Shown piece by piece: positions 14,173 through 44,982 of a DNA stretch of 64,000 bases; the stretch's first letter is position 1; the number at the start of each line of letters is the position of its first letter. The notes under the pieces are model-generated. The model did no database searches, was not told the DNA's origin, and saw nothing but the letters and a program-made list of their open reading frames with translations. Made by a program: the position numbers and the translations under genes. The stretch covers positions 34,996 through 98,995 of the forward strand of contig CAZNJI010000001.1 in NCBI GenBank assembly GCA_964573395.1. The letters are read 5' to 3'. Source of the stretch: an uncultured Candidatus Saccharibacteria bacterium. Lineage in GTDB: Bacteria > Patescibacteriota > Minisyncoccia > Phycocordibacterales > UBA9973.

Positions 14173-14214
<42 letters not shown>

Positions 14215-14792: not shown

Positions 14793-14824
<32 letters not shown>

Positions 14825-15981: not shown

Positions 15982-16046
<65 letters not shown>

Positions 16047-17470: not shown

Positions 17471-17585
17471 CTGTGTTGGTGATTCGTCGCAGGGGTCACA
17501 CCTCTTCCCATTTCGAACAGAGAAGTTAAGCCCTGTAGAGCCGATGGTACTTTTTTTAAGGGAGAGTAGGCAGTCGCCAGCACAG
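17471..17585 (+). rRNA. rrf: 5S rRNA
   Basis: Helix I pairs CTGTGTTGGTG with CGCCAGCACAG. The conserved internal blocks CCCATTTCGAACAGAGAAGTTAAGCC and GAGAGTAGG are present. The gene lies 60 nt downstream of the 23S end. Confidence 0.85.
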
Positions 17586-23529: not shown

Positions 23530-23622
23530 TTCAAAATAATACCATGACAGCTTGCTGAAGAGTATTTTATCCACTGCGAATATGTTGACATTTTTAGCAA
23601 CCCTTGTATGATTGCATGGTCT

Positions 23623-30992: not shown

Positions 30993-32312
30993 ATGAGCCA
31001 GGAATCAAGAACAATTGAAGATTCTGTATTTCGGTCGCCAAACCGGATTGCGGTAAACATTGCGCTCTTAGTGGCGTCCGTGCTTCTTTTGATCATTCTC
31101 ATTGTTTTCAAGTCGACTCGCGCCGGATTCGGACACTGGTTTCTGTTCAGCTACACAGTGCTCGTTACGGTGTTTCAGTTGTTCCGGCTTTCCGCTTCGC
31201 TCATTTTTCCGAAATTCCTCTCTCAGATAGTTTACCCGGTCAAGGCCGAGAATTACGAGCCAATGGTAACGATCGTCGTGCCGTGCAAAAACGAGGAAGC
31301 GGCAATTAAGCATACGCTCGAAGCGTGTTTTGAGGCTGAATATCCGAAGGAAAAGCTTGAGGTCATCGTGATCAATGACGGATCAACCGACGGCACGATT
31401 CACCAGATTGGCCTGGTGAAGAAAAATCACCCCGAACTCATCGTCATCGATTGGAAAGAGAACAGGGGAAAGCGCGAGGGAATGGCGGCAGGCTTCCGGC
31501 AGGCACGGGGAGAAATCGTCGTTCAGCTCGATAGCGACAGCTACATTGAGCCGAAGACGTTCAAAGAACTGATTCAGCCATTCGCAAACCCGGCTATCGG
31601 AGCGGTATGCGCGCACGGCGACGTGGCGAATGCGGACAAAAATATCATTACGAAAATGCAGTCGGGGTACTATTATGTTTCATTTCGGCTTCTCAAGGCT
31701 GCGGAATCAATCTTCTTCTCAGTGCTTTGCTGCAGTGGCTGTTCATCGGCATATAGAAAAGACATCGTGCTTCCGGTGCTTGATAGCTGGCTCAAGGAAT
31801 CCTTTTTGGGAGTTACCGTAAAGCACGGAGACGACCGGTCGCTGACGGGATGGGTATTAAAGCGCGGATTCCGCACCGTGTATACCGATCGCGCTCGAGC
31901 ATATACCATTGCTCCGGAAAACATTCGTCAGCTGATGAAGCAGCAGGTTCGCTGGAAAAAGTCGTGGGTATCGAACGCCTATTTTACCTTTAAATACATT
32001 TTTAAAACTGACCCACTTTTCGGAGCGCTTTATTACGTTCCGCTCATTCTTATCTCGTTCGTCACGCCGCTGGTTGCACTCTTGAATCTGTATCTGCTTC
32101 CAACCATCAGCGGAGAAAGCCCGGTCATTTATCTTCTCGGCGGAATCATCACCAGCTTGCTCTTCGTGATGTGCGCGCTCTATTACGCGCGCGGAGAACG
32201 CCGTTACATCGGCTATTTTTTGCTGTGGCAGATACTTTCAGCAGCCGTGCTGAGCTTCATCCTTTATTACTCGTTCGCTCGTTTCCGAGACCAGCGCTGG
32301 GGAACTCGCTAA
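30993..32312 (+). CDS. HAS/NodC/chitin-synthase-like processive GT2 (beta-GlcNAc-polymer synthase candidate)
   Basis: The motifs VVPCKNEE, NDGSTDGT, QLDSDSY, HGDDRSLTGW and QQVRWKKSW (QxxRW) are present, with N- and C-terminal transmembrane helices. The GDDRxLT motif is the one seen in hyaluronan and NodC-type synthases. Confidence 0.85.
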   Translation: MSQESRTIEDSVFRSPNRIAVNIALLVASVLLLIILIVFKSTRAGFGHWFLFSYTVLVTVFQLFRLSASLIFPKFLSQIVYPVKAENYEPMVTIVVPCKNEEAAIKHTLEACFEAEYPKEKLEVIVINDGSTDGTIHQIGLVKKNHPELIVIDWKENRGKREGMAAGFRQARGEIVVQLDSDSYIEPKTFKELIQPFANPAIGAVCAHGDVANADKNIITKMQSGYYYVSFRLLKAAESIFFSVLCCSGCSSAYRKDIVLPVLDSWLKESFLGVTVKHGDDRSLTGWVLKRGFRTVYTDRARAYTIAPENIRQLMKQQVRWKKSWVSNAYFTFKYIFKTDPLFGALYYVPLILISFVTPLVALLNLYLLPTISGESPVIYLLGGIITSLLFVMCALYYARGERRYIGYFLLWQILSAAVLSFILYYSFARFRDQRWGTR

Positions 32313-32316
32313 CAAC

Positions 32317-35052
32317 ATGCATTCCGTACATACCCACAAAAGAATCCGAATCGGAATCGTGGCAGCGGTTATTTTTTTGACTGCCGCAGTCGTTCTGGCG
32401 ATTCACATCATTAATGGAAGCGCTTTGCCGAATCGAATCCTGCACGATATCCGTCGCCTCTCTTCTCACGCCAGAGAAATGATCGTTCCATACAACATCA
32501 AGACGCCTGAGCTGTCTGCCGAAGCTGCACAGACCGTGCCAGTGCTGGTGTACCACGGCATCGGTTCGGATGATTCTCGCTATTCAATGAAGATAGCGCA
32601 GTTTCGAAACCACATGATCGCCCTAAAAGAAGCTGGTTTTCAAACTGCCTCGGCGGAAGATTTTTTCGCATTTCTTGAAGGAAAGAAAACCCTTCCGGCA
32701 AAATCATTCGTGCTGACGTTTGACGACGGACGGAAAGATAGTTACTACAACGCCGATCCGATTCTCGCGCGCCTCGGCTTTTCGGCGGTGATGTTCGTTG
32801 CTCCCGGCCAGTCGCTGGTAGAGTCAACGGAGAAATATTCTCGCTACTATTTAAATCCGATAGAGCTTTCCCGCCTCATGAAAACAGGGCGTTGGGAGAT
32901 TGGTTCGCACGGCGTTCAGGAAAACGGGGGATACATAGCGATTGACGCGGAAGGTACTACGGGGCAGTTTTTGAGCAATAAAAAGTGGCTTCCAGATGTT
33001 CTGCACATTGAAACTGATGAAGAATACAACGCGCGCGTTTCGTATGAATTATCTCAATCAAAGCAATCGCTCGAACTTTTTACCGGAAAACCGGTTATCA
33101 TGTTTTCATATCCATTCAGCGATTATGGGCAAGAAAGCCTCAACGCTTCTCGCGTTGCCAGTACGGCTATTAATGCGGCTGTCACAGATAACTACCGCTA
33201 TGCCTTTCGCCAGCAGTGGGGATACGACAGCGGATATATCGGAAATCGCCCAGGAGATAATCCGCTGTTCTTGAAGCGCATCGAGCCGGCATCCGACTGG
33301 ACCAATGAGCGACTTCTTTTGTTCTTGGAAGGCGGAGTCGACGTGTCTCTTGAAGAAGCAGCTCATCTGACGCTCGCTGAAAGCGCGCTTCGGTTTCGGG
33401 TTGCCTGGGGAGGAAAATCCGCCTTTGAATCGGAAAAAATTACCGTACAACCGGACGGAAACATTGCAAGCGTTGCCGCCATTCTTGACGGTACGCATAC
33501 TTGGAAGAATTATCAGGTAACGATGGATGCATCGCTTGATACCGCTTCTTCAGTTGCACTCTATCTTAGATCGCAGGAGCCGGGAGAAGGGGTCCGCTGC
33601 CGCTTTTCCTCTGACGCTGTGTACATAGAAACAGTGAAAAATGATGTAGCAACGTATCGAAAGCAGTATTCGCTCCAGGAAGAAGTAGGGAAGAATCGCC
33701 GTCTGAGTGCAAGTATTTTTGGAAATACGGTCGGTTGTTTTGAGGAAGGCGTGCTAGTTGCAGCAGGGAACATTCCAAACGTACTGCCTATTGGCGGAAC
33801 TGGTATTGAGTACTGGGCATACAACAACCGCGCACCGCTTGAAATCAGCTCTCTTTCCATTGTCCCAAGCGCGGCAATGAATGATTCACTGGTGAGCCAG
33901 TTTGAATCCCTTTCGGATAAATCGCTGGTTCGCGTGGTGCCAACGGCAGAACTGAAAGATGCATTGATAGCGGAATCGCCAAGAACTTTTCGGTATGCAG
34001 GGGAAAATCTCATAAACATGGAAACGTTCGTCCGTGGCGGTTCTGCAACGTATGGCGAAATCAGCGGTACGACTGCAAACATTATTCTTGCAAGGCAGGC
34101 AGCGGCCGGAGGGTTCTGGTTCTGGTCACCGCTTTCAGTTGCGCCACATCAAGAATATGCAATCGAGGCTTCCTATGAATCAACCATTGAAAGCGAGCTA
34201 ATGGTGCGATACGGCACACAGAGCGGCACAGTATGGAAATCAATCCGCATGCTGCCGGCAGGATCATTTTCATACCAAGAGGTTATTGAAATTCCGGAAG
34301 GCGCTCAAACAATGGAGGTTCTTCAGGTGATTCGCGATTCCGGAAGTTTGGCCGTTATTCATCCAAGCATCCGACTCTTGCAGTCTGGAAAATTCGCGCG
34401 CGGGATGGTAACGCTTTCATTTGATGACGGATATAAATCATTTATGACCAATGCTCTGCCGGTACTTTCTGAATTTAAGATGCCAAGCACGGTTTCAATT
34501 ATTACCAGCCATGTCGGCTATAGCCGGTATCTTTCCGCTCAAGACATAAACAGCATCAGCCGAAAAGGGCATGAGATTGCTGCCCATACTAGAACACATA
34601 CGCATCTTTCGGAAAATCAGGAAGAAAGTTTGATTACCGAGATTGTCGGCTCTTGGTATGATCTTTCAAAGGCCGGATACAAGATAACGTCATTCGTTTA
34701 TCCGTACGGAAACTTCTCGCTCGATGCGAAGAATATTGCCGCAAGAAAGTTTTCTGGTGCGCGAACGGTCAGCCGGGGTTTTAATACGAAAAATACCGAC
34801 CCGTACCTTCTGAAAGACCAGCTAGTAACCCGGGATATTTCTGTTGTGGCTGTTCAAGAGTATCTTGCCACTGCAAACGCGAATCAATCATGGCTTATTC
34901 TTGAACTGCATGAAGTTTTGAAAGAAGACAGTCAAAATGATTCAGAGTCAATTACGATTGCAAAATTACGTGAAATTTTAAAGGCTGTTCAGGATTCCGG
35001 GGTCGAAGTGGTAACGCTTGAAGAAGGCATAAGACAATTAAAAGAGCGCTAA
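32317..35052 (+). CDS. Membrane-anchored protein with two NodB-type polysaccharide deacetylase domains (PgaB/chitin-deacetylase-like)
   Basis: The first NodB domain reads VPVLVYHGI...FVLTFDDGRKDSYYNADPILARLGFSAVMFVAPG. The second reads MVTLSFDDGYKSF...HEIAAHTRTHTHL. The gene lies 4 nt downstream of the synthase gene. Confidence 0.85.
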   Translation: MHSVHTHKRIRIGIVAAVIFLTAAVVLAIHIINGSALPNRILHDIRRLSSHAREMIVPYNIKTPELSAEAAQTVPVLVYHGIGSDDSRYSMKIAQFRNHMIALKEAGFQTASAEDFFAFLEGKKTLPAKSFVLTFDDGRKDSYYNADPILARLGFSAVMFVAPGQSLVESTEKYSRYYLNPIELSRLMKTGRWEIGSHGVQENGGYIAIDAEGTTGQFLSNKKWLPDVLHIETDEEYNARVSYELSQSKQSLELFTGKPVIMFSYPFSDYGQESLNASRVASTAINAAVTDNYRYAFRQQWGYDSGYIGNRPGDNPLFLKRIEPASDWTNERLLLFLEGGVDVSLEEAAHLTLAESALRFRVAWGGKSAFESEKITVQPDGNIASVAAILDGTHTWKNYQVTMDASLDTASSVALYLRSQEPGEGVRCRFSSDAVYIETVKNDVATYRKQYSLQEEVGKNRRLSASIFGNTVGCFEEGVLVAAGNIPNVLPIGGTGIEYWAYNNRAPLEISSLSIVPSAAMNDSLVSQFESLSDKSLVRVVPTAELKDALIAESPRTFRYAGENLINMETFVRGGSATYGEISGTTANIILARQAAAGGFWFWSPLSVAPHQEYAIEASYESTIESELMVRYGTQSGTVWKSIRMLPAGSFSYQEVIEIPEGAQTMEVLQVIRDSGSLAVIHPSIRLLQSGKFARGMVTLSFDDGYKSFMTNALPVLSEFKMPSTVSIITSHVGYSRYLSAQDINSISRKGHEIAAHTRTHTHLSENQEESLITEIVGSWYDLSKAGYKITSFVYPYGNFSLDAKNIAARKFSGARTVSRGFNTKNTDPYLLKDQLVTRDISVVAVQEYLATANANQSWLILELHEVLKEDSQNDSESITIAKLREILKAVQDSGVEVVTLEEGIRQLKER

Positions 35053-35076: not shown

Positions 35077-38055
35077 ATGACTACTACCACTACGAAGATC
35101 GTTCGCACCATTATTTTGGGACTCTGCGCTTTTTCTGCAGTAATTTTAGTACGTTATTTTTCCGTTGATCATCCGCGTACCGTGCATGTGTTTACTCCGG
35201 CTCCATCGTTTCGCGCTGCTGCGATTGATCCATTCGAGCAGGAATTTGCTGTTGAAGAGGTGGGAGCAATGTCTGAATCTTCACATAGCACGTTTTGGCT
35301 TAATTCCGGAGGCAGAATGACCGTACAGAACGGCATTGCAAAGACCATACAAGGCGATTTACCGGCAAGTGATCGATGGTATCAGGAATACGCCCGCACC
35401 AATGCGCTTGATACCGACGGAGGCTTGCATCCGCAGAATTTGTTCCGTCTCGTTACCCGATCACAGTGGCAAGATGTCCGCCAGGAGGTATTTTTTAAAA
35501 TAGAAAAAACGAATATGAGCGACAGTCCGAACCAAAACGCGTCGAATGGTGTTTTGTTCTTTAATCGTTACAGAGATGCAGATAATCTCTATTATGTCGG
35601 TGTTCGCGTTGATGGAAATGCTGTTGTCAAAAAGAAAATTAATGGTGTGTATTACACCTTGGGGTTGAATAAAATTGTCGATGGCGTGTATAATGAAGCG
35701 TCACATCCAAATCTCCTTCCAACCGATAAGTGGATTGGAATGAAAACGGAAGTAAAAAACGAAACTGATGGCACAGTAACCATCATTCTTTTTACCGACA
35801 TTGGCCAAACTGGCACTTGGACGGAAGCACTCCGGGTCACTGATGATGGAAATCAATACGGTGGTCCTGTTTTCTCTGAAAGTGGTTTTGCGGGGATTCG
35901 ATCTGACTTTATGGATTTATCATTTAGCTCATACACAGTCAGTGACATAGTTGCGAATGCTCCTACTGTCCAAGTAGATCAAGTACCGCCAACCCTCACG
36001 CTTCTCGGAAATGAAAAGGAGGTTGTTCTGGTGGGTGCACCGTACAACGACGCAGGGGTAACCGTCACTGACAACATAGATAAGAAGCCAACACTCGTTA
36101 CGGCAGGGCTTCCGGTAAATACCCAAACGCCGGGAAAGAAGCAGGTTACGTACACCGCAACGGATGCCGCTGGGAACACCCAGTTTAAAAGCCGAACGGT
36201 AGAAGTAATTGCAAAAAGTGCGCCGCTCAGTGTTACTAACAAAACGCTTACCTGCGCGCAGCTGCTTGCTGCTTCAAGCTTCTACCGCGATAAGCACATG
36301 CAGGCGCTCCGTGAATATAACGCTCGCGTTGCCGCCAAAGATACCGCTACTGCTGAGACGCTTGAAACCATTGCCTGTACACCGCAGGCAATCTGGATTT
36401 CTAACTACACCGCCAGTACGGCAAATATTGAGTCTCATGTAAAAAGCAGGATCGCCGATGCGGAAAAAGAAGGAAAACTTCCAGTGTTTGTTATCTACAA
36501 CAGCCCGCATACCGGAACGTATAAATGGGGAAGCGGATTAACGCCGGGGCAAGGCCATCTTGATTGGATTTCAGCGGTAGTTCGCGGTATTGGAAGTTCC
36601 AACGCGTGGGTGGTTGTCGAACCTGATTTAATTGGCCTTTCATTTGAATACAACAGTGCTGAGCGTCTTGCCGCTCGAACGGATATTAAAAATGCAGTCG
36701 AGAAACTGCAAAGTGCGCCGAATATTCGCGTGTATCTTGATGCCGGACATAGCAATTGGCGGGGAATTCAGGATGTTGCCAAAGCACTCAATGAATCCGG
36801 CATTGCTGCCGCTGATGGCTTCGCAACAAACATTTCAAACTTTCGTTTTACCAACAACGAAATTGATTACGGCAACCAACTCTCTGCTCTAGTTGGCGGA
36901 AAGTCGTTTATTATTGATACAAGCCGAAATGGAAATGGCCATTCTCAAACAAACGAATGGTGTAATCCGAGCGGCAGAAGTATTGGTCCGGCGCCAACAC
37001 AGAATACGGGCTACGATAAAGTAGATGCTTTTGTCTGGATTAAGAATCCAGGAGAATCCGATGGAACTTGTAGTGGCGGTCCGACGCCAGGGCAATTCTG
37101 GCAGAGCTACGCGCTTGGATTGGTAGATACAGCGAAGAAACTTTCAGGAAATCTTGCACAGCAAGGGATTGTAACGGTAAGTAAAAACGTTAGTGCAAAC
37201 CCCACGCCAACTCCTGCACCAACCCCAACGCCAACACCCCCGCCGGCTCCTGCGCCAAAACCAGGGCCGGTAATTATTTCAGACGGAACAGATTCACGTC
37301 CAAACATTCCTGCAACGCCTACACCTACCCCTGCACCAACCCCAACGCCAACACCCCCGAAACCTACCACGCCAACCCCTGCACCTACTCCTGCTCCCGT
37401 TGCGCCAAAGCCGGCTCCGGCAACTCCAAAACCTACTCCAGCTCCAACGCCGAAACCAACTCCTGCACCATCTGCTCCTGTAGCCAGTAGCGGTGGAGGC
37501 GGAGGGGGAGGCGGCGGAGGTCGATCATCATCTGTATCTCAAACTCCTAAAGTCATTTCTTTAAACGATACAGCAACAGTGAATCGATTGAGAACGTCTG
37601 AACAATTGAAAAATTTAAATTCAGTGGCAGTTAAAGATTTTACAGCAGAAGGTATTGTTCCACCTCCACCTGAAGTAATAGCAATGCTTCAAGTGCCAGT
37701 AACTGCAATTGGCCCAGGAGTTACAGAAGAAAAAATTGAAATTGCCCGTGAACGAATTACTAATAGTCCGACTGGTGCAGGAATCATTGGAAAATCCATT
37801 GGTAATAATTTATCCTTCGGCGCACGCGGAACCGAAGTAGCTGAACTCCAAGTTTTTCTTGCTAAATTCCCAGAACTATATCCGGCTGGTCTAGTAACAG
37901 GGTACTACGGAAAACTGACCCGTGAAGCAGTGCAACGATTCCAGGTTTCGAACGGTATTTTTATTACCCCGCCAGCAGTGGGTACGGCAGGATACGGCTC
38001 GGCTGGCCCGCGCACTCGAACGCTTATCAATCAGATTCTCTTGGGGGCAAATTAA
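35077..38055 (+). CDS. Secreted glycoside hydrolase family 6-like enzyme with Ig-like N-domain, Pro/Thr linker and C-terminal peptidoglycan-binding domain
   Basis: The GH6 blocks are VFVIYNSPH...[29 protein letters not shown] and [14 protein letters not shown]. The linker is [14 protein letters not shown] and is followed by a Gly run. The C-terminal PG_binding_1-like block is [17 protein letters not shown]...[15 protein letters not shown]. Confidence 0.8.
37212..37359 (+). repeat. Identical 30-nt direct repeat within the Pro/Thr linker coding region
   Basis: The sequence CCTGCACCAACCCCAACGCCAACACCCCCG occurs at 37212-37241 and again at 37330-37359. A GGN run lies at 37490-37520. Confidence 0.6.
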
Positions 38056-38056
38056 A

Positions 38057-38086
38057 AAACCGCCCTGTATGCAAGGCGGTTTTTCT
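38057..38086. terminator. Bidirectional terminator between convergent genes
   Basis: The stem ACCGCC-ctgtatgcaa-GGCGGT has an A-run upstream and a T-run downstream. Confidence 0.6.
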
Positions 38087-38096
38087 GTTCCTTTAC

Positions 38097-39704
38097 TTAT
38101 CGTCTAAATGGTTCTTTCTGAGAGAAGGGCGCACCGGGTGCCGGATGAACGAGTTCAGAAGGAGGGAATTCGGGAATATTCAATTCAGGGCACTTAATCA
38201 TGTTAATCCATCGCTTCGTTGTTTTATACACGAATCCAGTACCGGTTTCATCAATCGGGCCAACCTGTTTCCATGGATTCAATACATTCGTTGCTTCTCT
38301 TACCTGGAACTGCTTCACTGCCTGGTAGCTTCCTGGTCCGTATACGCCATCAACCACCAAGTTTGCATTCATGTATTCATTCAAGAAAGTCTGAAGCCGC
38401 ACGACATTTGCGGTATCGTTCGGGGACCCCCAGCGAATGTAGCTGGTAATATATTCGCCACACGCTTCTTCACCAAGAATTTCTCCTGGCGGATTAGGGC
38501 GTGAACCACTTCTTCGGCTACTGCCACTGCTTCCCCCGCTGCCGCCGTTTCCATTGTCATCATCGTCAGACTCATCATCATCGTTCGGATCGTAGGTGTC
38601 ATCATCGTCTGCGTTACCGTCGGTATGGCATCCTGGGTCGGCTTCGTCTATGAGCTCATCGCCGTCGTTGTCCGCTTCGTCGCTGCACTCCGGGTCGGTA
38701 TCTCCGCCTCCGCCGCCGTTTCCATCTTCATTAGTCTCATCATCGTCGGTTGGCACATATGAATCTGGGTTATCTGCATCGCCATCAGAGTGGCATCCCG
38801 GATCCGCCGCATCAATCAATTCATCATCGTCATTGTCTGCCTCATCGCTGCATTCCGGATCGCCTCCTCCCGTTCCGCCTCCGTCAGGGCAATCAAAAGC
38901 AATCTCTACGACCAGATCATTAAAATCATAGTCGCCATTGCTTACCATGTCTTCAAACGCCAAAATGTAATTATCTGGGCGCGGATTATAGGTAACAACC
39001 TGGTCTTTATTATTCGCATTAAGGGAATTTTGGGCTGCAATTGGAATAGGGGCAGCGCCTTCATCTGAAGTTTGGATTGCGAAGCCAATGCTTGTTATCG
39101 AGTCGTCCGGAATGACGAATTCGTATGAGTCTCCGCTTGCCGCTTCCTCAGTTTCGTCAAATCCTGGAACTTCCCCTTTTCGAAAGAGCGGGGTAAACGT
39201 GCTAAGGTCGCCGTTCGTATAGTAGCCGAACACGTTTCCATTCTGCGCCGCCTCATCGATGAATGCCGCCGTCACGGTGATTTCTTCTCCTTCGGTCACG
39301 CTCCAGAGCTGGTATTGGGTTTGGTCCACTGTTACGTCTATCTGGTCATCGGGGAATTTTTCATCGAGTACCTCTTGCAGCGTTTTTTCGGTTCCGATGC
39401 TCGGTCCGAATTCCTCTGCCGCATCGTCATCCAAAGAGTCGGGCGTGGTGCATGAATTCTCCGCAACAAGCAGGATGCTTGGCGATTCTTCTTGAACAAT
39501 CGCCTCGGATTTAGTTTGCTCCGTTTCCTCTGGGTCTGGTTCAGGAGTTTCTACCGGAACATCTTCAAGAGGGGAAGTAACTTCTTCCGTTTGAGGTTCT
39601 GCTGGCGACACTTCTTGTCCGAAGGCAAAAAATGAATCTGTATTGAAAGTAAGAAAACTTAGTGCGAGAAACAATCCAATTCCGTAATGTAAAAATTTTT
39701 TCAT
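38097..39704 (-). CDS. Secreted acidic repeat protein with C-terminal peptidoglycan-binding-like domain
   Basis: A signal peptide is present (MKKFLHYGIGLFLALSFLTF). There are two tandem repeats of about 55-72 aa each, of the form DPECSDEADND(D/G)DELID(A/E)ADPGCH(S/T)DG. The C-terminal block NVVRLQTFLNEYMNANLVVDGVYGPGSYQAVKQFQ looks like a peptidoglycan-binding domain. Confidence 0.75.
   Translation of the reverse strand: MKKFLHYGIGLFLALSFLTFNTDSFFAFGQEVSPAEPQTEEVTSPLEDVPVETPEPDPEETEQTKSEAIVQEESPSILLVAENSCTTPDSLDDDAAEEFGPSIGTEKTLQEVLDEKFPDDQIDVTVDQTQYQLWSVTEGEEITVTAAFIDEAAQNGNVFGYYTNGDLSTFTPLFRKGEVPGFDETEEAASGDSYEFVIPDDSITSIGFAIQTSDEGAAPIPIAAQNSLNANNKDQVVTYNPRPDNYILAFEDMVSNGDYDFNDLVVEIAFDCPDGGGTGGGDPECSDEADNDDDELIDAADPGCHSDGDADNPDSYVPTDDDETNEDGNGGGGGDTDPECSDEADNDGDELIDEADPGCHTDGNADDDDTYDPNDDDESDDDDNGNGGSGGSSGSSRRSGSRPNPPGEILGEEACGEYITSYIRWGSPNDTANVVRLQTFLNEYMNANLVVDGVYGPGSYQAVKQFQVREATNVLNPWKQVGPIDETGTGFVYKTTKRWINMIKCPELNIPEFPPSELVHPAPGAPFSQKEPFRR
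38481..38861 (-). repeat. Tandem coding repeats (2 copies, Asp/Cys-rich) in the acidic protein gene
   Basis: Seen in the translation of 38097..39704; the two copies are adjacent and about 70% identical. Confidence 0.7.
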
Positions 39705-39853
39705 AGGCTAACTCCAACGTTACATGCCATCAGTTTCCTGACAGTTTCTGCTAATACTTAGAAATCGTACGCTCTGCCTGTGGAAAGTGTCAATAGCCAT
39801 TTTTTTAATAGTGGTTATACTAAAGGCAGTGTAGTGTTTTTGGTTAATGTCTT

Positions 39854-39901: not shown

Positions 39902-40321
39902 ATGAAAAAGCTTTTCGGAGAATTGGGACGGTTTGGACTCGTCGGGGGAATCAATACCCTGGTGGATCTCGGAGTGTTCAATTTGCTTATTTTTTTCTCC
40001 GGCCAAAACATTGAAAGACACTACACTCTCTTTAAGGCACTATCGTTTACTGTTGCTGTCGTTAATAGCTTCATCCTGAATAAGTTTTTCGTCTTCAGAA
40101 GCAAGGAAACAGCGGCTAGTAAGATTTTCCCCTTCCTCATCGTCAGTCTAGGGGGGCTTGCTTTAAATAGCCTATTTGCATCGTTCATTTTCCACCAACT
40201 TAATGCCGCGTACGGACAAGCCGACGTGAAATTTCACGCCAACGTAGCGGCAATTATTAGTACCGGGGTCGTAATGGTCTGGAATTTTCTTGGTTACAAG
40301 AAAATTGTATTTAAACTATGA
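39902..40321 (+). CDS. GtrA-family membrane protein (polyprenol-sugar translocation)
   Basis: The N-terminus FGLVGGINTLVDLGVFNLL is followed by four transmembrane helices, and the protein is about 139 aa, all typical of GtrA. The gene overlaps the downstream giant gene by 4 nt. Confidence 0.8.
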   Translation: MKKLFGELGRFGLVGGINTLVDLGVFNLLIFFSGQNIERHYTLFKALSFTVAVVNSFILNKFFVFRSKETAASKIFPFLIVSLGGLALNSLFASFIFHQLNAAYGQADVKFHANVAAIISTGVVMVWNFLGYKKIVFKL

Positions 40322-43300
40322 AACCAGTCTTCTTATCGATAATTATACCGGCGTATAACGAAGCGAAGCGCATCGGCTCCACCCTCAGAAGTATCGACGA
40401 GTATTTACGAGATAAGGAGTATACGTACGAAATTATTGTAGTGAGCGATGGTTCTTCTGATGACACCGAAACGGTTGTTTCAGGCCTCGCGTCGGAGGTA
40501 CGGAACCTCGTGCTTCTCTGCAATAGGGTTAATAGCGGAAAAGGGTATGCAGTGAAGTGCGGCATGCTCAAAGCAACGGGAGAATACCGGTTATTTCTTG
40601 ATGCTGACCACTCAACGCATATCAGTAATCTAGAAAGTTTCCTTCCGGAAATTCAGGGTTCTGATGCAAGTGTTATTGTTGGGTCAATCGCGCTCCAAAC
40701 GTCAAAAAGTATCGACCGTGCCGGATGGTACCGGAAAATTCTTCGGCCGATTTCGAAAAAAATCATCCATTCATTTTTACGCGTCGGGGTCAAGGATACC
40801 CAGCGCGGTTTCAAGCTCTTTACAAAACGGGCCGCGGAAATTATTTTTCCAAAAAGTGATAGTAAGGGGTTTCTGTTTGATGTTGAACTCTTAGTTATCG
40901 CCACCCATAACAACATGGTGGTAAAGGAATTGCCTGTTGATTGGGATAATCCGGCTGGGTCGAAAATCAAGCTCTCTTCGTACATAAAAGCGTTTGTTGA
41001 TTTCTTGAAAATCGTCGGAAAAAAAATAAGCGGTAAATACCGCTCTGCGTCGCATTTCCTCATTCAGCATTTCGATGAAGAAACTGAGAGTATAAAAGGA
41101 AAAGGGTTTTTCTATAAGAACAAAGAATTCGTCCACCATAGCAATCTGCACCACACCCAGACGGCGCTCTATAACCTGCTGAGTTCGCAGAAGATTTTTA
41201 TCGTGCTCCTGGTTGGCATTTTGGCAATCGGGTTCATTATCGATTGGCATGCAACGCTGGTTGCCATCATTGCAACCCTTACCATCGTGTACTTCCTCGA
41301 TCTTCTGTTCAATGCATTTTTAATTTACCGAAGCTTCGCCAAGAATCCGGAGATTGCGGTAAGTGGACAGGAGCTATCAGCACTCTCAGATGCAGCACTG
41401 CCAACCTATACTATTTTCTGTCCGCTCTACAAAGAGTGGCAAGTGGTGCCGCAGTTCGTCTCTGCAATGCAAGCACTCGACTACCCCGTCGAAAAACTTC
41501 AGGTGATGTTCCTGTTGGAAGAAAATGATGTCGAGACGATTGAAAAAATCCGCGAGTACGATTTGCCGGAACATTTCGAAATTGTCGTGGTGCCGCACTC
41601 AAAGCCAAAAACGAAGCCGAAAGCAATGAACTATGGCCTCAAGCATGCGCGAGGGGAATACTTGGTAATTTACGATGCTGAAGATGTCCCCGAGCCCGAT
41701 CAGCTCAAGAAGGCCGTTCGCGCTTTTGAGAAAGTAAAAGAAAACGTTGTCTGCATCCAGGCAAAGCTGAATTTTTACAATCCGCACCAAAATGTATTAA
41801 CCCGCGCTTTTACGGCTGAATACTCGCTGTGGTTTGACCTGGTGCTTCCGGGATTGCAGTCGCTCAATGCGCCGATTCCGCTTGGCGGCACGTCGAATCA
41901 TTTCAAGGTTTCGGCGCTTCGGGAGCTTTCCGGTTGGGACGCGTTTAACGTAACTGAAGATGCCGATCTGGGTATGCGGCTTGCAAAGCGCGGCTACCGA
42001 ACGGCAATTCTTGATTCAACCACGCATGAAGAGGCAAATTCCGGCCTCTGGAACTGGTTCAATCAGCGCAGCCGCTGGATCAAGGGCTACATTCAAACCT
42101 ATTTCGTGCACACGCGCGATCATGAAAAATTCCTTGAGAAAGGGAAACTGAAAGACGCGATTATCTTCCATTTGAATATCGGCGGAAAGATTCTTTCAAT
42201 GTTTATCAACCCATTCATGTGGCTTCTCACCGCTTCCTACTTCCTGTTCCGGGAAACCGCCGGGCCGTTCATTGAAACGCTCTTCCCGACAACAGTGCTC
42301 TATCTTGGCGTATTCTCGCTCGTGTTCGGAAATTTCCTCTACATGTACTATTACATGATCGGCTGCATGAAGCGCGGTTACACCGGGCTCGTAAAGTATG
42401 CGTTCGTCATTCCATTCTATTGGCTCGGCATGAGCGCCGCTGCCTGGCGGGCGCTCTACGAAGTAGTGGTGAATCCGCACTACTGGTCCAAGACGGTGCA
42501 CGGGCTGCACCTGCAGAAAGAAAAAGGAGAGCCGGAAATTCTTGAAGATATCGAAACAAACGCCGAACAGATTCCGCAGTACTTCTGGACAAGAGTGCGG
42601 CAATCCATTTTTTCAGGCGCCGGCGTGCTGGTGGTGGCAACCATTATCGCAAACGTCTTCAATCTGCTTTTCAACATTTATCTTGGCAATCGGCTCTCGC
42701 TTGAAGAATTCGGCGTTATTACGGCGCTTAATACGCTCGTGTATTTAATTAGCATCGTGGTGAGCGCGTACGGAACGACCATCGTCCACCAAGTGGCGCA
42801 CCTGGTCGGGCGAATGAGCCAGTTTGCCGGGTTTTCATACTTTAAAAAGATTAGAGCCTACGGCTTCCTGATCGCCATTGCTGCTGCGGCGCTCTGGCTG
42901 TTCCTCACGCCAGCAATCGCGAATTACCTGCACATTTCAAACAGCCTCCTCGTTGCGTCATTCGCGCCGGCGATTATCGCGGTCTTGCTTGCTTCAGTGA
43001 ATCGCGGTTATCTCCATGGCAGCCTGTTCTTCAAAAGCATTGCCATTATCGTTTTAGTCGAAGTGATAGCAAAGCTTGGGTTGGCGATTTGGTTCGTTGA
43101 ATCCAAGATTCAATGGTTTGCGGCATTATCATTGCCGATTTCAATGATTATTGCCTACCTCATATCGCTTTTCATGGTGAAGCGCCCGGAGAAAGTGCCG
43201 CTTGATCGTTCAACCCAGAAAGATTTCTCATTCTCATTTTTCGGTGCAGCACTCGTTACTGGATTCTCGACTATGGCGTTCTTGAGCCTCGATGTTTTCT

Positions 43301-44982
43301 TTGCTAAGCACTACTTGAGCCCGAGCGAAGCCGGCGTTTACAGCCTCCTTTCGCTTGTCGGGAAAATGATTTTCTTCTTCGGATCGCTCTTAAATGCATT
43401 CATCGTCCCGATGACGAGCCGGCTTGAAGGGAAAGGCGAAGACGCAAAACCGCTCTTCTATAAAATATTCCTGGGCGCATTCTTCTGTTCGCTTGTTTCG
43501 AGCGCCGGGCTCGTGCTTACTGGGCCATACGTGCTTCCGCTCATGTTCGGCGCAAAGGCCGCAACCATTTTCGCGTACATTCCGCTCTATGCGCTCGCAA
43601 TGTTCCTCTTGGCGGTTACGAATACGGTCGTCCTTTTCCATTTGGCACGAAAGCAGTATCTGTTTGCTGCCATCTCCATTTTCTCGGCGCTTCTGATGGT
43701 GTTCGGCATCTCACGGGCGAACGATTCGGTTGAAAAAATCGTCGGCGTCTTCCTGTTCTCAAACGCGATTTACGCGATTCTTATCTTCTCAAGCCATCTC
43801 TTTTACGGAAAAATCGTTTCGTTCTATAAGAACGTTTTAGATGCGCTCCGGGTATTTCTGCCAATTCCGGCGGCGCTGCCAGCGAAGCCGGGCAAGAAGC
43901 GGATTCTCATTTTCAACTGGCGCTGCCTGAACCACACTTTTGCCGGTGGCGCCGAAGTCTACATTCAAACCTTCGCGAAGCAGTGGGTTAAAGAAGGGCA
44001 CTCGGTCACGATCTTTTGCGGCAATGATCGCCAGTCGCTTTCAAACGAATTCGTTGACGGCATCCGGGTCATTCGCCGCGGCGGATTCTATTCGGTGTAC
44101 ATAAACGCGTTTCTCTACTACATGGCAAAATTCCGCGGCAAATTCGACGTCATCATCGACTGCGAAAACGGCATTCCATTCTTTACGCCGCTCTACGCCA
44201 AAGAATCAGTGTATATTCTGGTGCACCACGTGCACCAAGAGGTGTTCAGAAAAACGCTAGTTGCGCCGCTTGCCGCTTTTGCGGCGTTCATGGAGCGTAA
44301 AGTTATGCCGGCCGTGTATCGCAATACGCCGTTCATCACCGTGTCTGAATCGTCAAAAGCCGATCTTGAAGCGCTGGGCGTAACCAGCAGGAACATTGAG
44401 GTCATTCATCCCGGAGCCGACATTGCATTCCTGCGTCCGGCGCCGAAAAACGACGTGCCAACCATTTCATATGTTGGCCGTTTGAAGGATTACAAATCGA
44501 TTGACGTACTCATTAAGGCATTTGCAAAGGTAGTGCGGAAAGTGCCGCGTGCCCAGCTGGTAATTGCCGGAACGGGAGAGATGCGCGGAACGCTTGAATC
44601 GGTTGCGAAAGAGCTCGGGATTGAAGGATCGGTAAATTTCGTTGGTCGGGTAAGCGAAGAGGTAAAGCGCGAAATCTACCAGCAGTCGTGGGTAACGGTG
44701 AATCCGTCGATGATGGAAGGGTGGGGCATTACGACCATCGAGGCGAATGCCTGTGGTACGCCAGTCGTTGCGGCAGACGTTCCCGGGCTTCGTGATTCGG
44801 TGCGTGACGGCATTACCGGGTTCCTGTTTCCGCATGGCGACGATGAGGTGCTGGCAGAGAAGCTCGTAAAAATCATCAAGAGTAAAGTGCTTCAGAGAAA
44901 GCTTGCGATGAACGCGATTGAGTGGTCGCAGGATTTCGCCTGGGAGAAGGGAGCTGACAAGTTCTTGAGGATAATTGTATGA
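40318..44982 (+). CDS. 1554-aa four-module fusion: GT2 (polyprenyl-phosphate glycosyltransferase-like) + processive QxxRW GT2 + Wzx/MOP-like flippase + GT4
   Basis: This is a single uninterrupted ORF. Module 1 carries IIIPAYNEAKRI...VVSDGSSDDT and DADHST. Module 2 carries YDAED, QAKLNFYNP and QRSRWIKGY with flanking transmembrane helices. Module 3 is a 12-TM block of about 420 aa. Module 4 carries KRILIFNWRCLNHTFAGGAEVY...EGWGITTIEANACGTPVVAADVPGLRDSV. Confidence 0.85.
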   Translation: MKPVFLSIIIPAYNEAKRIGSTLRSIDEYLRDKEYTYEIIVVSDGSSDDTETVVSGLASEVRNLVLLCNRVNSGKGYAVKCGMLKATGEYRLFLDADHSTHISNLESFLPEIQGSDASVIVGSIALQTSKSIDRAGWYRKILRPISKKIIHSFLRVGVKDTQRGFKLFTKRAAEIIFPKSDSKGFLFDVELLVIATHNNMVVKELPVDWDNPAGSKIKLSSYIKAFVDFLKIVGKKISGKYRSASHFLIQHFDEETESIKGKGFFYKNKEFVHHSNLHHTQTALYNLLSSQKIFIVLLVGILAIGFIIDWHATLVAIIATLTIVYFLDLLFNAFLIYRSFAKNPEIAVSGQELSALSDAALPTYTIFCPLYKEWQVVPQFVSAMQALDYPVEKLQVMFLLEENDVETIEKIREYDLPEHFEIVVVPHSKPKTKPKAMNYGLKHARGEYLVIYDAEDVPEPDQLKKAVRAFEKVKENVVCIQAKLNFYNPHQNVLTRAFTAEYSLWFDLVLPGLQSLNAPIPLGGTSNHFKVSALRELSGWDAFNVTEDADLGMRLAKRGYRTAILDSTTHEEANSGLWNWFNQRSRWIKGYIQTYFVHTRDHEKFLEKGKLKDAIIFHLNIGGKILSMFINPFMWLLTASYFLFRETAGPFIETLFPTTVLYLGVFSLVFGNFLYMYYYMIGCMKRGYTGLVKYAFVIPFYWLGMSAAAWRALYEVVVNPHYWSKTVHGLHLQKEKGEPEILEDIETNAEQIPQYFWTRVRQSIFSGAGVLVVATIIANVFNLLFNIYLGNRLSLEEFGVITALNTLVYLISIVVSAYGTTIVHQVAHLVGRMSQFAGFSYFKKIRAYGFLIAIAAAALWLFLTPAIANYLHISNSLLVASFAPAIIAVLLASVNRGYLHGSLFFKSIAIIVLVEVIAKLGLAIWFVESKIQWFAALSLPISMIIAYLISLFMVKRPEKVPLDRSTQKDFSFSFFGAALVTGFSTMAFLSLDVFFAKHYLSPSEAGVYSLLSLVGKMIFFFGSLLNAFIVPMTSRLEGKGEDAKPLFYKIFLGAFFCSLVSSAGLVLTGPYVLPLMFGAKAATIFAYIPLYALAMFLLAVTNTVVLFHLARKQYLFAAISIFSALLMVFGISRANDSVEKIVGVFLFSNAIYAILIFSSHLFYGKIVSFYKNVLDALRVFLPIPAALPAKPGKKRILIFNWRCLNHTFAGGAEVYIQTFAKQWVKEGHSVTIFCGNDRQSLSNEFVDGIRVIRRGGFYSVYINAFLYYMAKFRGKFDVIIDCENGIPFFTPLYAKESVYILVHHVHQEVFRKTLVAPLAAFAAFMERKVMPAVYRNTPFITVSESSKADLEALGVTSRNIEVIHPGADIAFLRPAPKNDVPTISYVGRLKDYKSIDVLIKAFAKVVRKVPRAQLVIAGTGEMRGTLESVAKELGIEGSVNFVGRVSEEVKREIYQQSWVTVNPSMMEGWGITTIEANACGTPVVAADVPGLRDSVRDGITGFLFPHGDDEVLAEKLVKIIKSKVLQRKLAMNAIEWSQDFAWEKGADKFLRIIV

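Follow-up and report, generated by a model that had tools for sequence, protein, structure and literature searches.

CslZ of Streptomyces is a membrane-tethered GH6 enzyme that cuts cellulose, chitin and, in vitro, peptidoglycan (PMC9040799). Together with an LPMO it is required for deposition of the CslA glycan outside the wall, and the csl cluster also has a separate peptidoglycan (PG)-binding-domain protein (PMC9040799). A sequence-only reading of the DNA described here found a GH6 domain and a PG-binding tail in one secreted protein and considered this odd because GH6 enzymes are normally cellulases. CslZ is a precedent to the contrary.

The DNA comes from an uncultured Paceibacterota-like (CPR) bacterium. 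By sequence, the closest relatives of its GH6 outside the CPR appear to be CslZ orthologues in Streptomycetaceae cslA-glxA-cslZ loci. The top non-CPR genome matches are Kitasatospora GH6s with 44% identity, and at the single locus checked (L014) the GH6 gene is convergent with GlxA and a GT2, the cslA-glxA-cslZ arrangement. Like CslZ, the GH6 described here belongs to a glycan-synthase locus, an analogous operon. However, its GT2 is no more than a distant relative of CslA (22% identity, E=0.006) and its GSDH is unrelated to GlxA. Thus, the GH6 itself excepted, the parallel with cslA-glxA-cslZ is one of analogy.

Organization of the locus

The window, the whole 64,000-nt stretch of DNA that was analysed, contains both of the convergent ORFs described earlier, encoding proteins of 992 and 535 aa (the latter referred to as protein 2). 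The GH6 gene closes a tightly packed plus strand operon (23608-38055), in which all genes lie on the same strand with gaps of 1-46 nt and a strong bidirectional terminator stands at the end. The genes and signals are as follows.

23608..25047, plus strand: processive GT2, BcsA/PgaC-like, first operon gene (Pfam, PDB, NCBIfam; TED and QxxRW motifs)
25049..26842, plus strand: GT-C (PMT_2)-like membrane protein, ~10 TM helices (TM scan, homology)
26889..30980, plus strand: 1363-aa secreted GSDH-type oxidoreductase (Pfam, NCBIfam)
30993..32312, plus strand: NodC/hyaluronan-synthase/chitin-synthase-like GT2 (Pfam Chitin_synth_2; GDDR and QQxRW motifs)
32317..35052, plus strand: 911-aa TM-anchored protein with two CE4 polysaccharide deacetylase domains (Pfam, NCBIfam; PgaB-like and HfsH-like)
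35077..38055, plus strand: 992-aa multidomain GH6 protein, last gene of the operon (ORF, Pfam)
38055..38084, no strand assigned: bidirectional intrinsic terminator hairpin between the GH6 and protein 2 genes (A-tract, GC stem, T-tract)
38097..39704, minus strand: 535-aa protein 2, predicted wall-anchored and lectin-like, a single-gene transcription unit (ORF, Pfam, NCBIfam)
39902..44982, plus strand: GtrA flippase-like gene and a 1554-aa GT2 + GT2 + TM + GT4 fusion (Pfam)

The terminator, common to the two convergent genes, has a dG of -14.8 kcal/mol on the plus and -20.3 kcal/mol on the minus strand (z -4.5 and -6.5), and 0/200 shuffles were equally stable. The GtrA and 1554-aa fusion genes are a continuation of the glycan cluster beyond protein 2.

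The Ig-like, GH6, PT/Gly linker and PG_binding_1 calls of the sequence-only reading, the last made for both proteins, were all borne out by Pfam and composition, and the motifs it quoted, including the two acidic Asp/Cys repeats of protein 2, are present in the translations. Features that it did not contain are the CBM66-like module, the TM anchor, the loss of an active-site aspartate, the DUF4114 domain, the bidirectional terminator and the operon context.

Structure of the GH6 protein

From N- to C-terminus the 992-aa protein consists of a TM anchor, a CBM66-like module, an Ig-like domain, the GH6 domain, a PT/Gly linker and PG_binding_1.

35110..35166, plus strand: N-terminal transmembrane helix, aa 12-30 (hydropathy scan, single segment, score 2.18)
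35236..35976, plus strand: beta-sandwich carbohydrate-binding-type module, aa 54-300 (AF2 and Foldseek)
35995..36207, plus strand: bacterial surface Ig-like domain, aa 307-377 (Pfam PF16403 Bact_surface_Ig-like, 1e-14)
36322..37134, plus strand: GH6 catalytic domain, aa 416-686 (Pfam, PDB alignments)
37177..37791, plus strand: Pro/Thr/Ala-rich linker, ~205 aa, ending in a Gly10 run (composition)
37825..37959, plus strand: PG_binding_1 domain, aa 917-961 (Pfam)

The protein is predicted to be extracytoplasmic with one N-terminal TM helix; there is no canonical lipobox at its N-terminus. The N-terminal module (~240 aa) has no Pfam annotation. Its AF2 model (pLDDT 92.6) matches CBM66 best (4AZZ, E=6.7e-8, TM 0.77 on target), followed in Foldseek by L-type lectins and then DUF1080. 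Elsewhere this module occurs by itself or in tandem, flanking GH5, behind CE4 and ahead of PG_binding_1 tails. The Glyco_hydro_6 match (aa 419-668) has E=2.4e-53 and 182 bits against a Pfam cut-off of 27, and the domain aligns with 1UP0 (3e-56) and 1TML (1e-45) in the PDB. The linker, with P49, T29, A22 and G18 among its 205 residues, would serve as a wall-spanning spacer. The PG_binding_1 match (8.5e-8, 32.7 bits vs cut-off 23) spans positions 1-43 of the 57 in the model, about two thirds, and the tail also matches the SleB N-terminal region in NCBIfam.

The combination of GH6 and PG_binding_1 is rare, as had been supposed. It was found in 0/93 GH6 ORFs in 89 loci and in none of the best 120 GH6 homologues. 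Among all fetched proteins, which include the best 150 of an exhaustive search across 1.84 billion representatives, a single further case was found, P0243. This protein, from a second lineage and 44% identical, has the same layout of N-terminal module, Ig, GH6, linker and PG_binding_1, suggesting that the architecture is under selection. The 992-aa protein is a singleton at 90% identity among ~15 billion proteins. The fusion is not an artefact of assembly, as an independent Logan assembly yields the identical 992-aa protein.

The operon and its relatives

The first GT2 aligns with BcsA (7LBY, 2e-11). The second aligns with CvHAS (7SP7, 2e-29) and matches NodC (1.2e-46) and PgaC (1.5e-38) in NCBIfam; it is predicted to be a GlcNAc-polymer synthase. 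The 10-TM protein is 29% identical (E=2e-64) to an L009 protein annotated as PF13231 PMT_2, and it is conserved as a neighbour of the GT2. The 1363-aa protein carries GSDH (PQQ-type sugar dehydrogenase fold), PKD, CARDB, CBM4_9, Big_7 and LamG domains.

The GT2, GT-C, GSDH and GH6 core is kept in several other CPR lineages. The GSDH-PKD giant is directly upstream of GH6 in eight loci (L001, L002, L005, L006, L007, L009, L010, L012), and homologues of the GT2 and 10-TM proteins (E<=1e-61) lie <=10 kb from GH6 in seven (L001, L006, L007, L009, L010, L013, L031). GtrA and a small GT2 lie within the core module in L001, L006 and L010, and L008 has an alternative, a GT2 together with a fusion of PMT_2 and GH8. 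This synteny is not shared by all loci: at the P0006 loci (L003, L004) the synthase context is absent. In the closest relative, L010, all six operon genes are present and the protein has the same TM, N-terminal module, Ig and GH6 parts, but it ends right after GH6 with no PG tail. The anchor is thus not essential to the module.

From these comparisons we lean towards the view that the 992-aa protein is the glycan-cutting part of an envelope polysaccharide synthesis operon, with CslZ as its functional counterpart and GH6 homologue. Alternatively, the protein could be a nutritional surface glycanase. A CPR cell living by scavenging would then use GH6, together with the CBM-like module, to break down beta-1,4 glycans (cellulose, chitin, chitosan) from the environment or a host. 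The PG tail would do no more than hold the enzyme at the surface of the producer, and its neighbours in the operon would be coincidental or also degradative (GSDH as auxiliary activity, CE4 as chitin deacetylase); the GSDH-type enzyme and the glycoside hydrolase could be such a degradative pair. In favour of this, cellulase activity is the classical one for GH6 and the best relatives of solved structure are endoglucanases; the N-terminal module is also found elsewhere with a GH5 cellulase and with a CE4 esterase, and some clade members, at the P0006 loci, are away from any synthase. In addition, an ectosymbiotic parcubacterium (Ca. Nealsonbacteria) was proposed to recycle biomass and EPS via CE4 enzymes (preprint, bioRxiv 10.1101/2022.04.20.488981). 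However, two processive synthases and a GT-C protein are encoded in the same operon, with GtrA adjacent, a linkage that recurs across lineages. The loss of the putative base aspartate (below) argues against a high-turnover digestive enzyme, and tethering at both ends would restrict its reach to insoluble external substrates. We consider the nutritional role unlikely.

The GH6 active site

The domain retains the catalytic acid D517 (36625-36627), D555 and D662, in line with the GH6 assignment of the sequence-only reading, and the site is not fully canonical. G480 (36514-36516) occupies the position of the RDCG aspartate (TfCel6A D79/TrCel6A D175), leaving three of the four aspartates that are conserved in GH6. 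Column statistics showed that D517, D555, D662 and Y(Tf73) are invariant in 123/123 sequences. The domain falls in a CPR-only subclade without the RDCG aspartate, across which the signature-1 Asp and its partner Cys are both gone. D517 and every other remaining active-site Asp are present in 24/24 members of this subclade at ~45% overall identity. TrCel6A D175, the RDCG aspartate, is presumably the base.

TrCel6A D175A keeps only 2-3% activity (PMC6091422), and from its sequence the domain described here could be weakly active or non-catalytic. If it were dead or crippled, it might not cut the nascent polymer but act as a glycan-binding or chaperoning module that guides or templates its passage through the wall. 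The clade-wide loss of the signature-1 Asp and Cys would fit, as would CslZ D120A, in which activity on peptidoglycan and CMC is lost (PMC9040799); D120 is the position equivalent to G480, the mutated codon being read off the published primer (PMC9040799). The GH6 domains fused to tunicate cellulose synthase (CesA) are likewise without GH6 signature 1, and it is suspected that they do not hydrolyse glycans; in these, however, the acid itself is lost (PMC7464555), whereas D517 is kept here. Against a dead domain, the 24/24 retention at such low identity is the pattern of a working enzyme, and TrCel6A D175A still works via a water wire (PMC6091422). A purely binding role is therefore judged improbable. 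With the RDCG aspartate missing, slower hydrolysis or a changed specificity is expected, and this would suit a housekeeping trimming enzyme.

Protein 2 and the PG_binding_1 tails

Protein 2 has, in order, a signal peptide, an acidic N-terminal region, DUF4114, two acidic Cys repeats, a Gly/Ser linker and PG_binding_1. The N-terminal signal-peptide-like segment indicates an extracytoplasmic protein.

39764..39793, minus strand: promoter-like site of protein 2, TTGACA-18-TACGAT, 10/12 matches (consensus scan, pattern match only)
38880..39455, minus strand: DUF4114/PA-IIL-like beta-sandwich lectin domain, aa 84-275 (Pfam, AF2, Foldseek; motif FEDMVSNGDYDFNDLVVEI)
38529..38867, minus strand: two acidic repeats, ~55 aa each, C-x18-C (CSDEADNDxDELIDxADPGC) with an Asp-rich tail (regex, translation)
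38301..38411, minus strand: PG_binding_1 domain, aa 432-468 (Pfam 9.7e-6, 26.1 bits vs 23)

The DUF4114 match (aa 191-270) has 4.8e-8 and 34.3 bits vs a Pfam cut-off of 27. In Foldseek the best 14 matches of the AF2 model (pLDDT 83.8) are all LecB/BC2L-A/CV-IIL lectins (top E=3.3e-4), and DUF4114 has been tied to Ca-dependent lectins and sugar binding (PMC9109919, PMC11934332). The repeats, earlier thought possibly dockerin-like, have no dockerin match in Pfam or NCBIfam. They are of the type of NF033662, the 'acidic double-disulfide repeat' of NCBIfam (6e-8, two stretches, below the model cut-off), which elsewhere precedes LPXTG or PG_binding_1 anchors, and they would form a Ca-binding stalk. 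Protein 2 is thus a probable secreted Ca-dependent lectin-type adhesin with a LecB-like fold and a PG_binding_1 wall anchor. It is a singleton (90% identity, ~15 billion proteins); P0121 is 100% identical to it.

A functional pairing of protein 2 with the GH6 protein was considered and rejected, since the gene for protein 2 is flanked by a promoter-like site and a terminator of its own, and the genes related to it adjoin type IV pilus operons, not GH6 genes. The adjacency looks incidental.

Both PG_binding_1 tails exceed the Pfam threshold. They are homologous but old (26% identity, 95 aa, E=3e-5), and the family profile of the protein 2 tail matches PG-binding domains of endolysin 7RUM (6e-4), 1LBU, SleB and phiKZ gp144. 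In Patescibacteria, tails of this kind commonly form the C-terminus of surface proteins, which are diverse and in some cases pilin-like; L091 has three PG_binding_1-tailed surface proteins within 12 kb. The GH6 enzyme is plausibly anchored to a wall, as the sequence-only reading proposed. Nothing favours its further suggestion of the host's wall; FtsW/RodA is encoded in the window, so the organism builds a wall of its own.

Methanothrix-type methanogens are not known to have murein. A role as a host-directed weapon or attachment factor is very unlikely. In that reading the tail would bind bacterial host peptidoglycan while GH6, perhaps able to cut peptidoglycan like CslZ, breaches the host wall in episymbiosis, protein 2 aiding attachment by its lectin and PG tail. 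PG_binding_1 does often accompany wall-lytic enzymes (SleB, endolysin and lytic transglycosylase matches), CslZ acts on peptidoglycan in vitro, and in parasitic Paceibacteria extracellular proteins with PGBD, Ig and PKD domains are highly expressed and were proposed to have a part in attachment to hosts (PMC10936435). However, those hosts are methanogenic archaea, the TM and PG anchors at opposite ends fit retention in the producer's envelope, the tails also occur on unrelated CPR surface proteins, the closest relative, L010, has no such tail, and the genes around GH6 form a biosynthetic operon rather than a set of secretion or toxin genes.

Proposed role of the GH6 protein

The 992-aa protein is thus most likely a synthase-associated glycanase, tethered at its N-terminus by a TM helix and at its C-terminus by a peptidoglycan anchor. 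The helix would hold it in the membrane, and the PT/Gly linker would let the PG_binding_1 domain reach the peptidoglycan of the producing cell itself. The three domains from helix to linker (CBM66-like, Ig, GH6) would then sit between membrane and wall, where the nascent beta-1,4 glycan appears. There the enzyme may trim or release the polymer, or open the wall locally for its passage, as proposed for CslZ.

Two convergent genes and their domains

Both open reading frames of the sequence-only reading were found exactly where it had placed them, and the Ig-like domain, GH6 core and peptidoglycan-binding tail that it assigned to the longer product were recovered by Pfam. The two products are called here the GH6 protein and protein 2.

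Genes and Pfam domains of the GH6 protein and protein 2
35077..38055, + strand: GH6 protein, 992 aa
aa 307-377: Bact_surface_Ig-like (1e-14)
aa 419-668: Glyco_hydro_6 (2.4e-53; 182 bits, cut-off 27)
aa 917-961: PG_binding_1 (32.7 bits, cut-off 23)
38097..39704, - strand: protein 2, 535 aa
aa 191-270: DUF4114 (4.8e-8; 34.3 bits, cut-off 27)
aa 432-468: PG_binding_1 (26.1 bits, cut-off 23)

Both C-terminal blocks exceed the Pfam gathering threshold of 23 for PG_binding_1 (PF01471), with partial coverage of the 57-position model (positions 1-43 in the GH6 protein and 3-39 in protein 2). The family profile also matches the solved peptidoglycan-binding domains 7RUM, 1LBU, 6TCI and 3BKH. The two tails are homologous to each other (E=3e-5 over 95 aa); at just 26% identity, a recent duplication was ruled out. 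The GH6 protein has a single transmembrane (TM) helix at its N-terminus (aa 12-30), where no canonical lipobox was found, the sequence LGLC having been judged by eye against the consensus. The catalytic domain is followed by a Pro/Thr/Ala linker of about 205 residues, which ends in a run of ten glycines and leads into PG_binding_1.

At 90% identity each of the two proteins remains a singleton in a set of about 15 billion sequences. An independent Logan assembly reproduces the identical 992-aa reading frame, which is therefore not an assembly artifact. This, together with the identical layout of a homologous protein, P0243 (1026 aa, 44% identity, also with linker and peptidoglycan-binding tail), ruled out an assembly or frameshift origin of the tail. 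The full layout was seen only in P0243 and in the GH6 protein among all proteins fetched, including the 150 best matches from an exhaustive search of 1.84 billion representatives. At E≤1e-30 there were 1,545 GH6 matches. The fusion of GH6 to PG_binding_1 is thus as unusual as had been supposed, P0243 being the single other case among the proteins fetched. The closest relative, from a "Candidatus Paceibacterota" MAG (locus L010, 56% identity), has the TM helix, N-terminal module, Ig and GH6 domains and ends straight after the catalytic domain; the linker and tail are therefore an add-on.

The GH6 active site

Similarity to GH6 (PF01341, CAZy GH6) is significant over the whole domain. The closest solved structures are Mycobacterium tuberculosis Cel6 (Cel6/CelA1, 1UP0, E=3e-56) and Thermobifida fusca Cel6A (Cel6A/E2, 1TML, E=1e-45), each over about 270 residues. 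The catalytic core proposed from sequence stands at D517, D555 and D662 and fails at the aspartate of the RDCG motif. D517, in a ten-residue segment, aligns with T. fusca D117 (TrCel6A D221, the catalytic acid of signature 2), D555 (LDAGHS) with D156, and D662 (GESDG) with D265 (TrCel6A D401); all three are invariant in 123/123 aligned sequences. At the position of the RDCG aspartate (T. fusca D79, TrCel6A D175, PROSITE signature 1) the GH6 protein has G480, and no compensating acidic residue was found within its signature-1 loop. The catalytic domain can be aligned throughout with 1UP0 and 1TML and shares with them the acid in a VEPD motif, the DAGH and GESDG aspartates and the WCN...GTC disulfide. 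It differs from both in having PHTGTYKWG in place of RDCG, in the loss of the canonical Cys80, in a one-residue deletion after the signature-1 loop, and in the gain of a Cys pair, C393/C434.

These differences mark a clade. Neighbor-joining gave a 24-member RDCG-less group, the 23 nearest homologues plus the protein P0060. The RDCG aspartate is present in 0/24 members of this CPR subclade and in 96/96 canonical sequences, and C434 shows the reverse distribution (24/24 and 0/96). Cys80 is lost and the one-residue deletion present across the clade, all remaining active-site residues are invariant, and an acidic residue at T. fusca position 136 (D536 in the GH6 protein) is enriched. A genome scan found the RDCG-less state only at CPR loci L001-L013, while RDCG is kept in other CPR GH6s. 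Three clade members, P0314, P0365 and P0340, keep an acidic residue in the remodeled loop (SRDS, SREK and PREA, respectively), and these loops seem intermediate in form between the canonical one and the fully Asp-free one of the window.

TrCel6A D175 has been proposed to be the base, acting through a two-water wire, and D175A keeps 2-3% of activity via a longer wire (PMC6091422). In CslZ the D120A mutation abolished activity on peptidoglycan and CMC (PMC9040799), and the published primer showed that the mutated residue is the RDCG aspartate. Since GH6 membership is defined by homology, the missing aspartate does not exclude the GH6 protein from the family; on alignment its catalytic domain is classed as a divergent GH6, or a divergent subfamily. 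The pattern of conservation argues that it is still an enzyme, probably slow or of altered specificity.

The N-terminal module

Residues 54-300 of the GH6 protein, which gave no Pfam match, are predicted with high confidence to form a β-sandwich (pLDDT 92.6). The best solved fold match is CBM66 (E=6.7e-8, TM 0.77 on target, 13% identity), followed by L-type lectins and DUF1080, and from the model it is best called a CBM66-like or ConA-like module. It belongs to a large family lacking Pfam annotation (P0244, P0246, P0254 and about 100 representatives) with the motifs WWLNSGG...HPQNIFRL...NASNG...AGIRTDFMDV. In 74 representatives the module stands by itself and in 24 it is repeated in tandem; it also flanks a GH5 cellulase, follows a CE4 deacetylase, and precedes GH6 and PG_binding_1 tails. 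With this distribution across architectures it behaves like a carbohydrate-binding module. The neighboring deacetylase and GSDH proteins were both checked and contain no copy of it. A large unannotated module of carbohydrate-binding type has been identified.

The operon and the surrounding glycan clusters

The GH6 gene is the sixth and last of six closely packed genes on the + strand.

Genes of the operon
from 23608, +: gene 1, GT2, most BcsA-like, with TED and QxxRW motifs
from 25049, +: protein of 597 aa with about 10 TM helices, homologous (E=2e-64) to the PMT_2 (GT-C) protein of locus L009
from 26889, +: secreted GSDH-PKD-CARDB-CBM4_9-Big_7-LamG protein, 1363 aa
from 30993, +: NodC/HAS/chitin-synthase-like GT2
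from 32317, +: TM-anchored double CE4 deacetylase with PgaB-like and HfsH-like domains
from 35077, +: gene 6, GH6 gene

The 597-aa protein had no match in Pfam and NCBIfam; its GT-C identity follows from its homology to the L009 protein, which is annotated PMT_2. The 41-nt gap between the two convergent stop codons holds a strong bidirectional terminator consisting of an A-tract, a GC hairpin and a T-tract. It was seen by eye and confirmed by folding (dG -14.8 kcal/mol on the + strand and -20.3 on the - strand; z -4.5 and -6.5; 0/200 shuffles fold as well), and was not called by the promoter/terminator scanner. Protein 2 has a promoter-like site of its own. A prophage or endolysin origin of the GH6 protein, prompted by its PG_binding_1 domain, was set aside as its neighbors are all glycan-synthesis genes.

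The glycan cluster runs on past protein 2 with GtrA, a 1554-aa GT2-GT2-GT4 fusion, a pyruvyl transferase and more glycosyltransferases. The fusion (40318..44982) is a single reading frame in which two GT2 domains, one GtrB-like and the other of processive type, are joined to a multi-TM block and a GT4; it lies directly 3' of GtrA with overlapping start and stop codons. From 46000 to 50000, a part of the cluster spanning GT4, GT2 and DUF7657-like genes, the GC content falls to 0.347 from about 0.48 on both flanks, and because of this dip the part may have been laterally acquired. A second polysaccharide cluster, of Wzx/flippase type, occupies 1..8572 of the window and codes for a GT4, methyltransferases, GT2s, a DUF2334/CE4-like protein, a Polysacc_synt flippase and a Bac_transf priming transferase. 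About half of the 64 kb is given over to envelope glycans.

A CAP (cysteine-rich secretory protein) domain gene (22489..23634, - strand) borders the glycan cluster. CAP genes are also found at the cluster edge in L010 (15213..16250) and adjoining a protein 2 relative in L092 (4523..5590); the CAP protein is a recurrent neighbor of CPR surface-protein genes.

The 23S rRNA match (13658..17406) spans 3,749 nt against a model of 2,925 nt, an excess of about 820 nt that matches no Rfam intron family and inside which no reading frame of ≥150 aa is listed. A 5S rRNA lies at 17475..17582, and no 16S gene was found upstream of the 23S within the window. Unlinked, insert-bearing rRNA genes are associated with CPR, and those seen here fit a CPR origin.

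Conservation of the neighborhood

The linkage of GH6 to a synthase-type module is mostly conserved. At eight of the loci found in the searches (L001, L002, L005, L006, L007, L009, L010 and L012) the GSDH-PKD giant lies directly upstream of the GH6 gene. At 7 loci (L001, L006, L007, L009, L010, L013 and L031) the BcsA-like GT2 and its 10-TM partner have homologues ≤10 kb from GH6, and at L010 all six genes are present, their order slightly changed. The loci encoding P0006 (L003 and L004) have no synthase-type context. At L008 the GH6 gene adjoins one (11234..13966, - strand) whose 910-aa product joins a PMT_2 (GT-C) membrane domain to GH8, the family of BcsZ; next come a 795-aa double GT2 and a GtrA-FAD oxidoreductase fusion. 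The L008 GH6 is paired with a GT2 and the PMT_2-GH8 fusion, the synthase, oxidoreductase and glycanase theme recurring in another combination.

Comparison with known GH6 and synthase systems

The best genome matches to the GH6 protein outside CPR are Kitasatospora GH6s (44% identity). In one of these, L014, the GH6 gene converges on a GlxA gene (Pfam GlxA domain, 4e-34) and a Glyco_trans_2_3 GT2, an arrangement that is the cslA-glxA-cslZ locus. CslZ, a GH6 tethered to the membrane, hydrolyzes cellulose, chitin and Streptomyces peptidoglycan, and together with an LPMO it is required for deposition of the CslA glycan outside the wall; its cluster codes for a separate membrane protein that has a domain for binding peptidoglycan (PMC9040799, Zhong et al. 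2022, mBio). The GH6 protein resembles CslZ in its catalytic domain, in its membrane tether, in the position of its gene beside a processive GT2 and an extracytoplasmic oxidoreductase, and in a connection to peptidoglycan, which CslZ cuts and to which the GH6 protein would be linked by PG_binding_1. The tether, however, is a TM helix here and a lipoprotein anchor in CslZ, the peptidoglycan-binding domain is fused to the enzyme rather than encoded separately, the CBM66-like and Ig domains are extra, and D120, which CslZ needs, is missing. The partner oxidoreductases also differ, having a GSDH (PQQ-type) fold in the window and being a copper radical oxidase (GlxA) in Streptomyces. No GlxA, kelch or GO-like domain was found in the window; the GSDH-PKD protein stands in the equivalent place. 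The GT2 of the window shares 22% identity with CslA over 180 aa (E=0.006), the aligned motifs being TED and QxxRW alone, and is not an ortholog. With so distant a GT2 and GSDH in the place of GlxA, the system would work in a CslZ-like way, but is not a member of the cslA-glxA-cslZ locus. From these comparisons the operon follows the same synthase, oxidoreductase and GH6 logic with parts that are non-orthologous save for GH6.

Exopolysaccharide synthase operons generally carry their own hydrolase. As with the BcsZ/PgaB/PslG/PelA-type hydrolases, a glycoside hydrolase and a deacetylase are encoded here in a polymer-making operon. The family differs (GH6 against GH8, GH153, GH39 and GH166), as does the setting, a monoderm cell and a predicted peptidoglycan anchor in place of a periplasmic location. 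Tunicate CesA, a GT2-GH6 fusion in which signature 1 is not conserved (PMC7464555), is a further precedent for coupling of GH6 to a GT2 synthase with signature 1 gone, although it is a eukaryotic fusion and the window has separate genes of a bacterial operon.

Protein 2 as a separate, probable wall-anchored lectin

The N-terminal domain of protein 2 (model pLDDT 83.8) matched LecB/PA-IIL-family lectins in all of its top 14 Foldseek matches (LecB, BC2L-A and CV-IIL; best E=3.3e-4, TM 0.56 on target). It carries the motif D-x-D-[YF]-N-D-x-V-V, and the family alignment shows no variation at D198, D200 and D203. Comparison of DYDFNDLVVEI in protein 2 with DNDYNDAVVVI of LecB was not significant (E=0.11 over 13 residues). 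Thus it is only the predicted fold, the motif and the literature that suggest a link to LecB. DUF4114 was described as a Ca-dependent lectin fold in the Myxococcus xanthus pilus-tip adhesin PilY1.1 (PMC9109919) and shown experimentally to be the mannose-binding domain of the Acanthamoeba MBP (PMC11934332). Protein 2 shares with AcMBP-1 the order of lectin, Cys-rich repeats and anchor (PMC11934332), and with PilY1.1 a pilus connection, its relatives adjoining type IV pilus genes (PMC9109919). Unlike both, its anchor is PG_binding_1 and not a TM helix or a pilus tip.

The two acidic Asp/Cys repeats had been thought possibly dockerin-like. No dockerin family appeared among Pfam matches at E≤0.1, and the dockerin/cohesin reading was rejected; the repeats resemble NCBIfam NF033662, "acidic double-disulfide repeat" (6e-8, 32.3 bits, below the cut-off of 41), a type of repeat that precedes wall anchors in many proteins. 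Each has two Cys, allowing one disulfide, against four in NF033662, and by sequence they are a related, shorter variant. Relatives with the layout DUF4114, acidic repeat and PG_binding_1 are common in Patescibacteria. In other CPR proteins the acidic repeat with its PG_binding_1 tail also stands behind PKD, PA14 and Ig domains, and LPXTG anchors come after the repeat in Actinobacteria. Found in such varied settings, the repeat and PG_binding_1 behave as a generic stalk-and-anchor cassette, one that recurs in Patescibacteria. Parasitic Paceibacteria express extracellular proteins with peptidoglycan-binding domains highly (PMC10936435).

The two relatives examined, on unrelated contigs (L091 9837..22350 and L092 73..4376), are divergent from a T2SSE/T2SSF/pseudopilin (type IV pilus) operon and have no GH6 gene nearby. 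L091 also codes, within 12 kb, for CLIPPER plus PG_binding_1 and SpaA-like plus PG_binding_1 proteins. A functional pair of GH6 protein and protein 2 was ruled out by their separate transcription units, and is also contradicted by the L010 operon, which lacks protein 2, and by the relatives beside pilus genes. The fold matches, the published work on DUF4114 and the contexts of the relatives point to protein 2 as an independent, putative wall-anchored lectin adhesin. Its convergent placement beside the GH6 gene appears incidental.

Proposed function of the GH6 protein

Domain content, operon structure, the conserved neighborhood and the state of the active site were established here. The reading favored, with moderate confidence, is a membrane- and wall-tethered enzyme acting on the polymer of the upstream synthases by trimming, release or a local nick in the wall. 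The protein would be held in the membrane by its N-terminal helix, and the long PT/Gly linker would give PG_binding_1 the reach to attach to the cell's own wall. So tethered, the CBM66-like, Ig and GH6 domains would lie between membrane and wall, where the polymer of the upstream synthases would come out. This polymer may be a β-glucan or a partly de-N-acetylated GlcNAc polymer, and both may be made. GH6 would shorten or free its chains, or nick the wall locally for the polymer to pass.

Three other functions were weighed. A surface-displayed nutritional glycanase is unlikely. Compared with the canonical endoglucanases 1UP0 and 1TML, the GH6 protein has no CBM2-type cellulose-binding module, and its operon is biosynthetic, not catabolic. 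A non-catalytic glycan-handling module, for which the absent RDCG aspartate could speak, is quite improbable; in the GH6 of tunicate CesA the acid is lost, whereas it is kept here. A weapon or attachment factor directed at a host wall is very improbable: FtsW/RodA is encoded in the window, so the organism makes its own peptidoglycan, and the initial suggestion of a cellulase aimed at the host wall has given way to a glycanase of CslZ type, associated with the synthases of a CPR envelope-glycan operon.

A wider proposal is more tentative. Paceibacterota-type CPR may have a previously undescribed envelope β-glycan machine consisting of a BcsA-like GT2, a GT-C protein, a GSDH-type oxidoreductase and a GH6 that works without the putative base, convergent with CslA/GlxA/CslZ, in which the GH6 is here stapled from membrane to peptidoglycan. 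If true, this GH6 embodies the proposed step of cutting a passage for the glycan through the wall. Nothing relevant on CPR cellulose synthase or on GH6 in Patescibacteria was found in the literature searched. Four points are new here: a GH6 subclade specific to CPR that lacks the RDCG aspartate, a counterpart of CslA/GlxA/CslZ that contains GSDH, the putative double tether to membrane and peptidoglycan, and the unannotated CBM66-like module.

A natural GH6 clade that lacks the equivalent of TrCel6A D175 in an otherwise intact site bears on the long-standing question of the catalytic base in GH6 (PMC6091422); if true, it is a natural experiment on that question. The fused PG_binding_1 gives independent support for a synthase-associated GH6 acting at or in the peptidoglycan layer, an idea that so far came from Streptomyces CslZ. 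The envelopes of CPR/Patescibacteria are almost unstudied, and the CPR surface is the interface with hosts. A conserved synthase, oxidoreductase and GH6 module would be a testable piece of the surface-glycan biology of these organisms.
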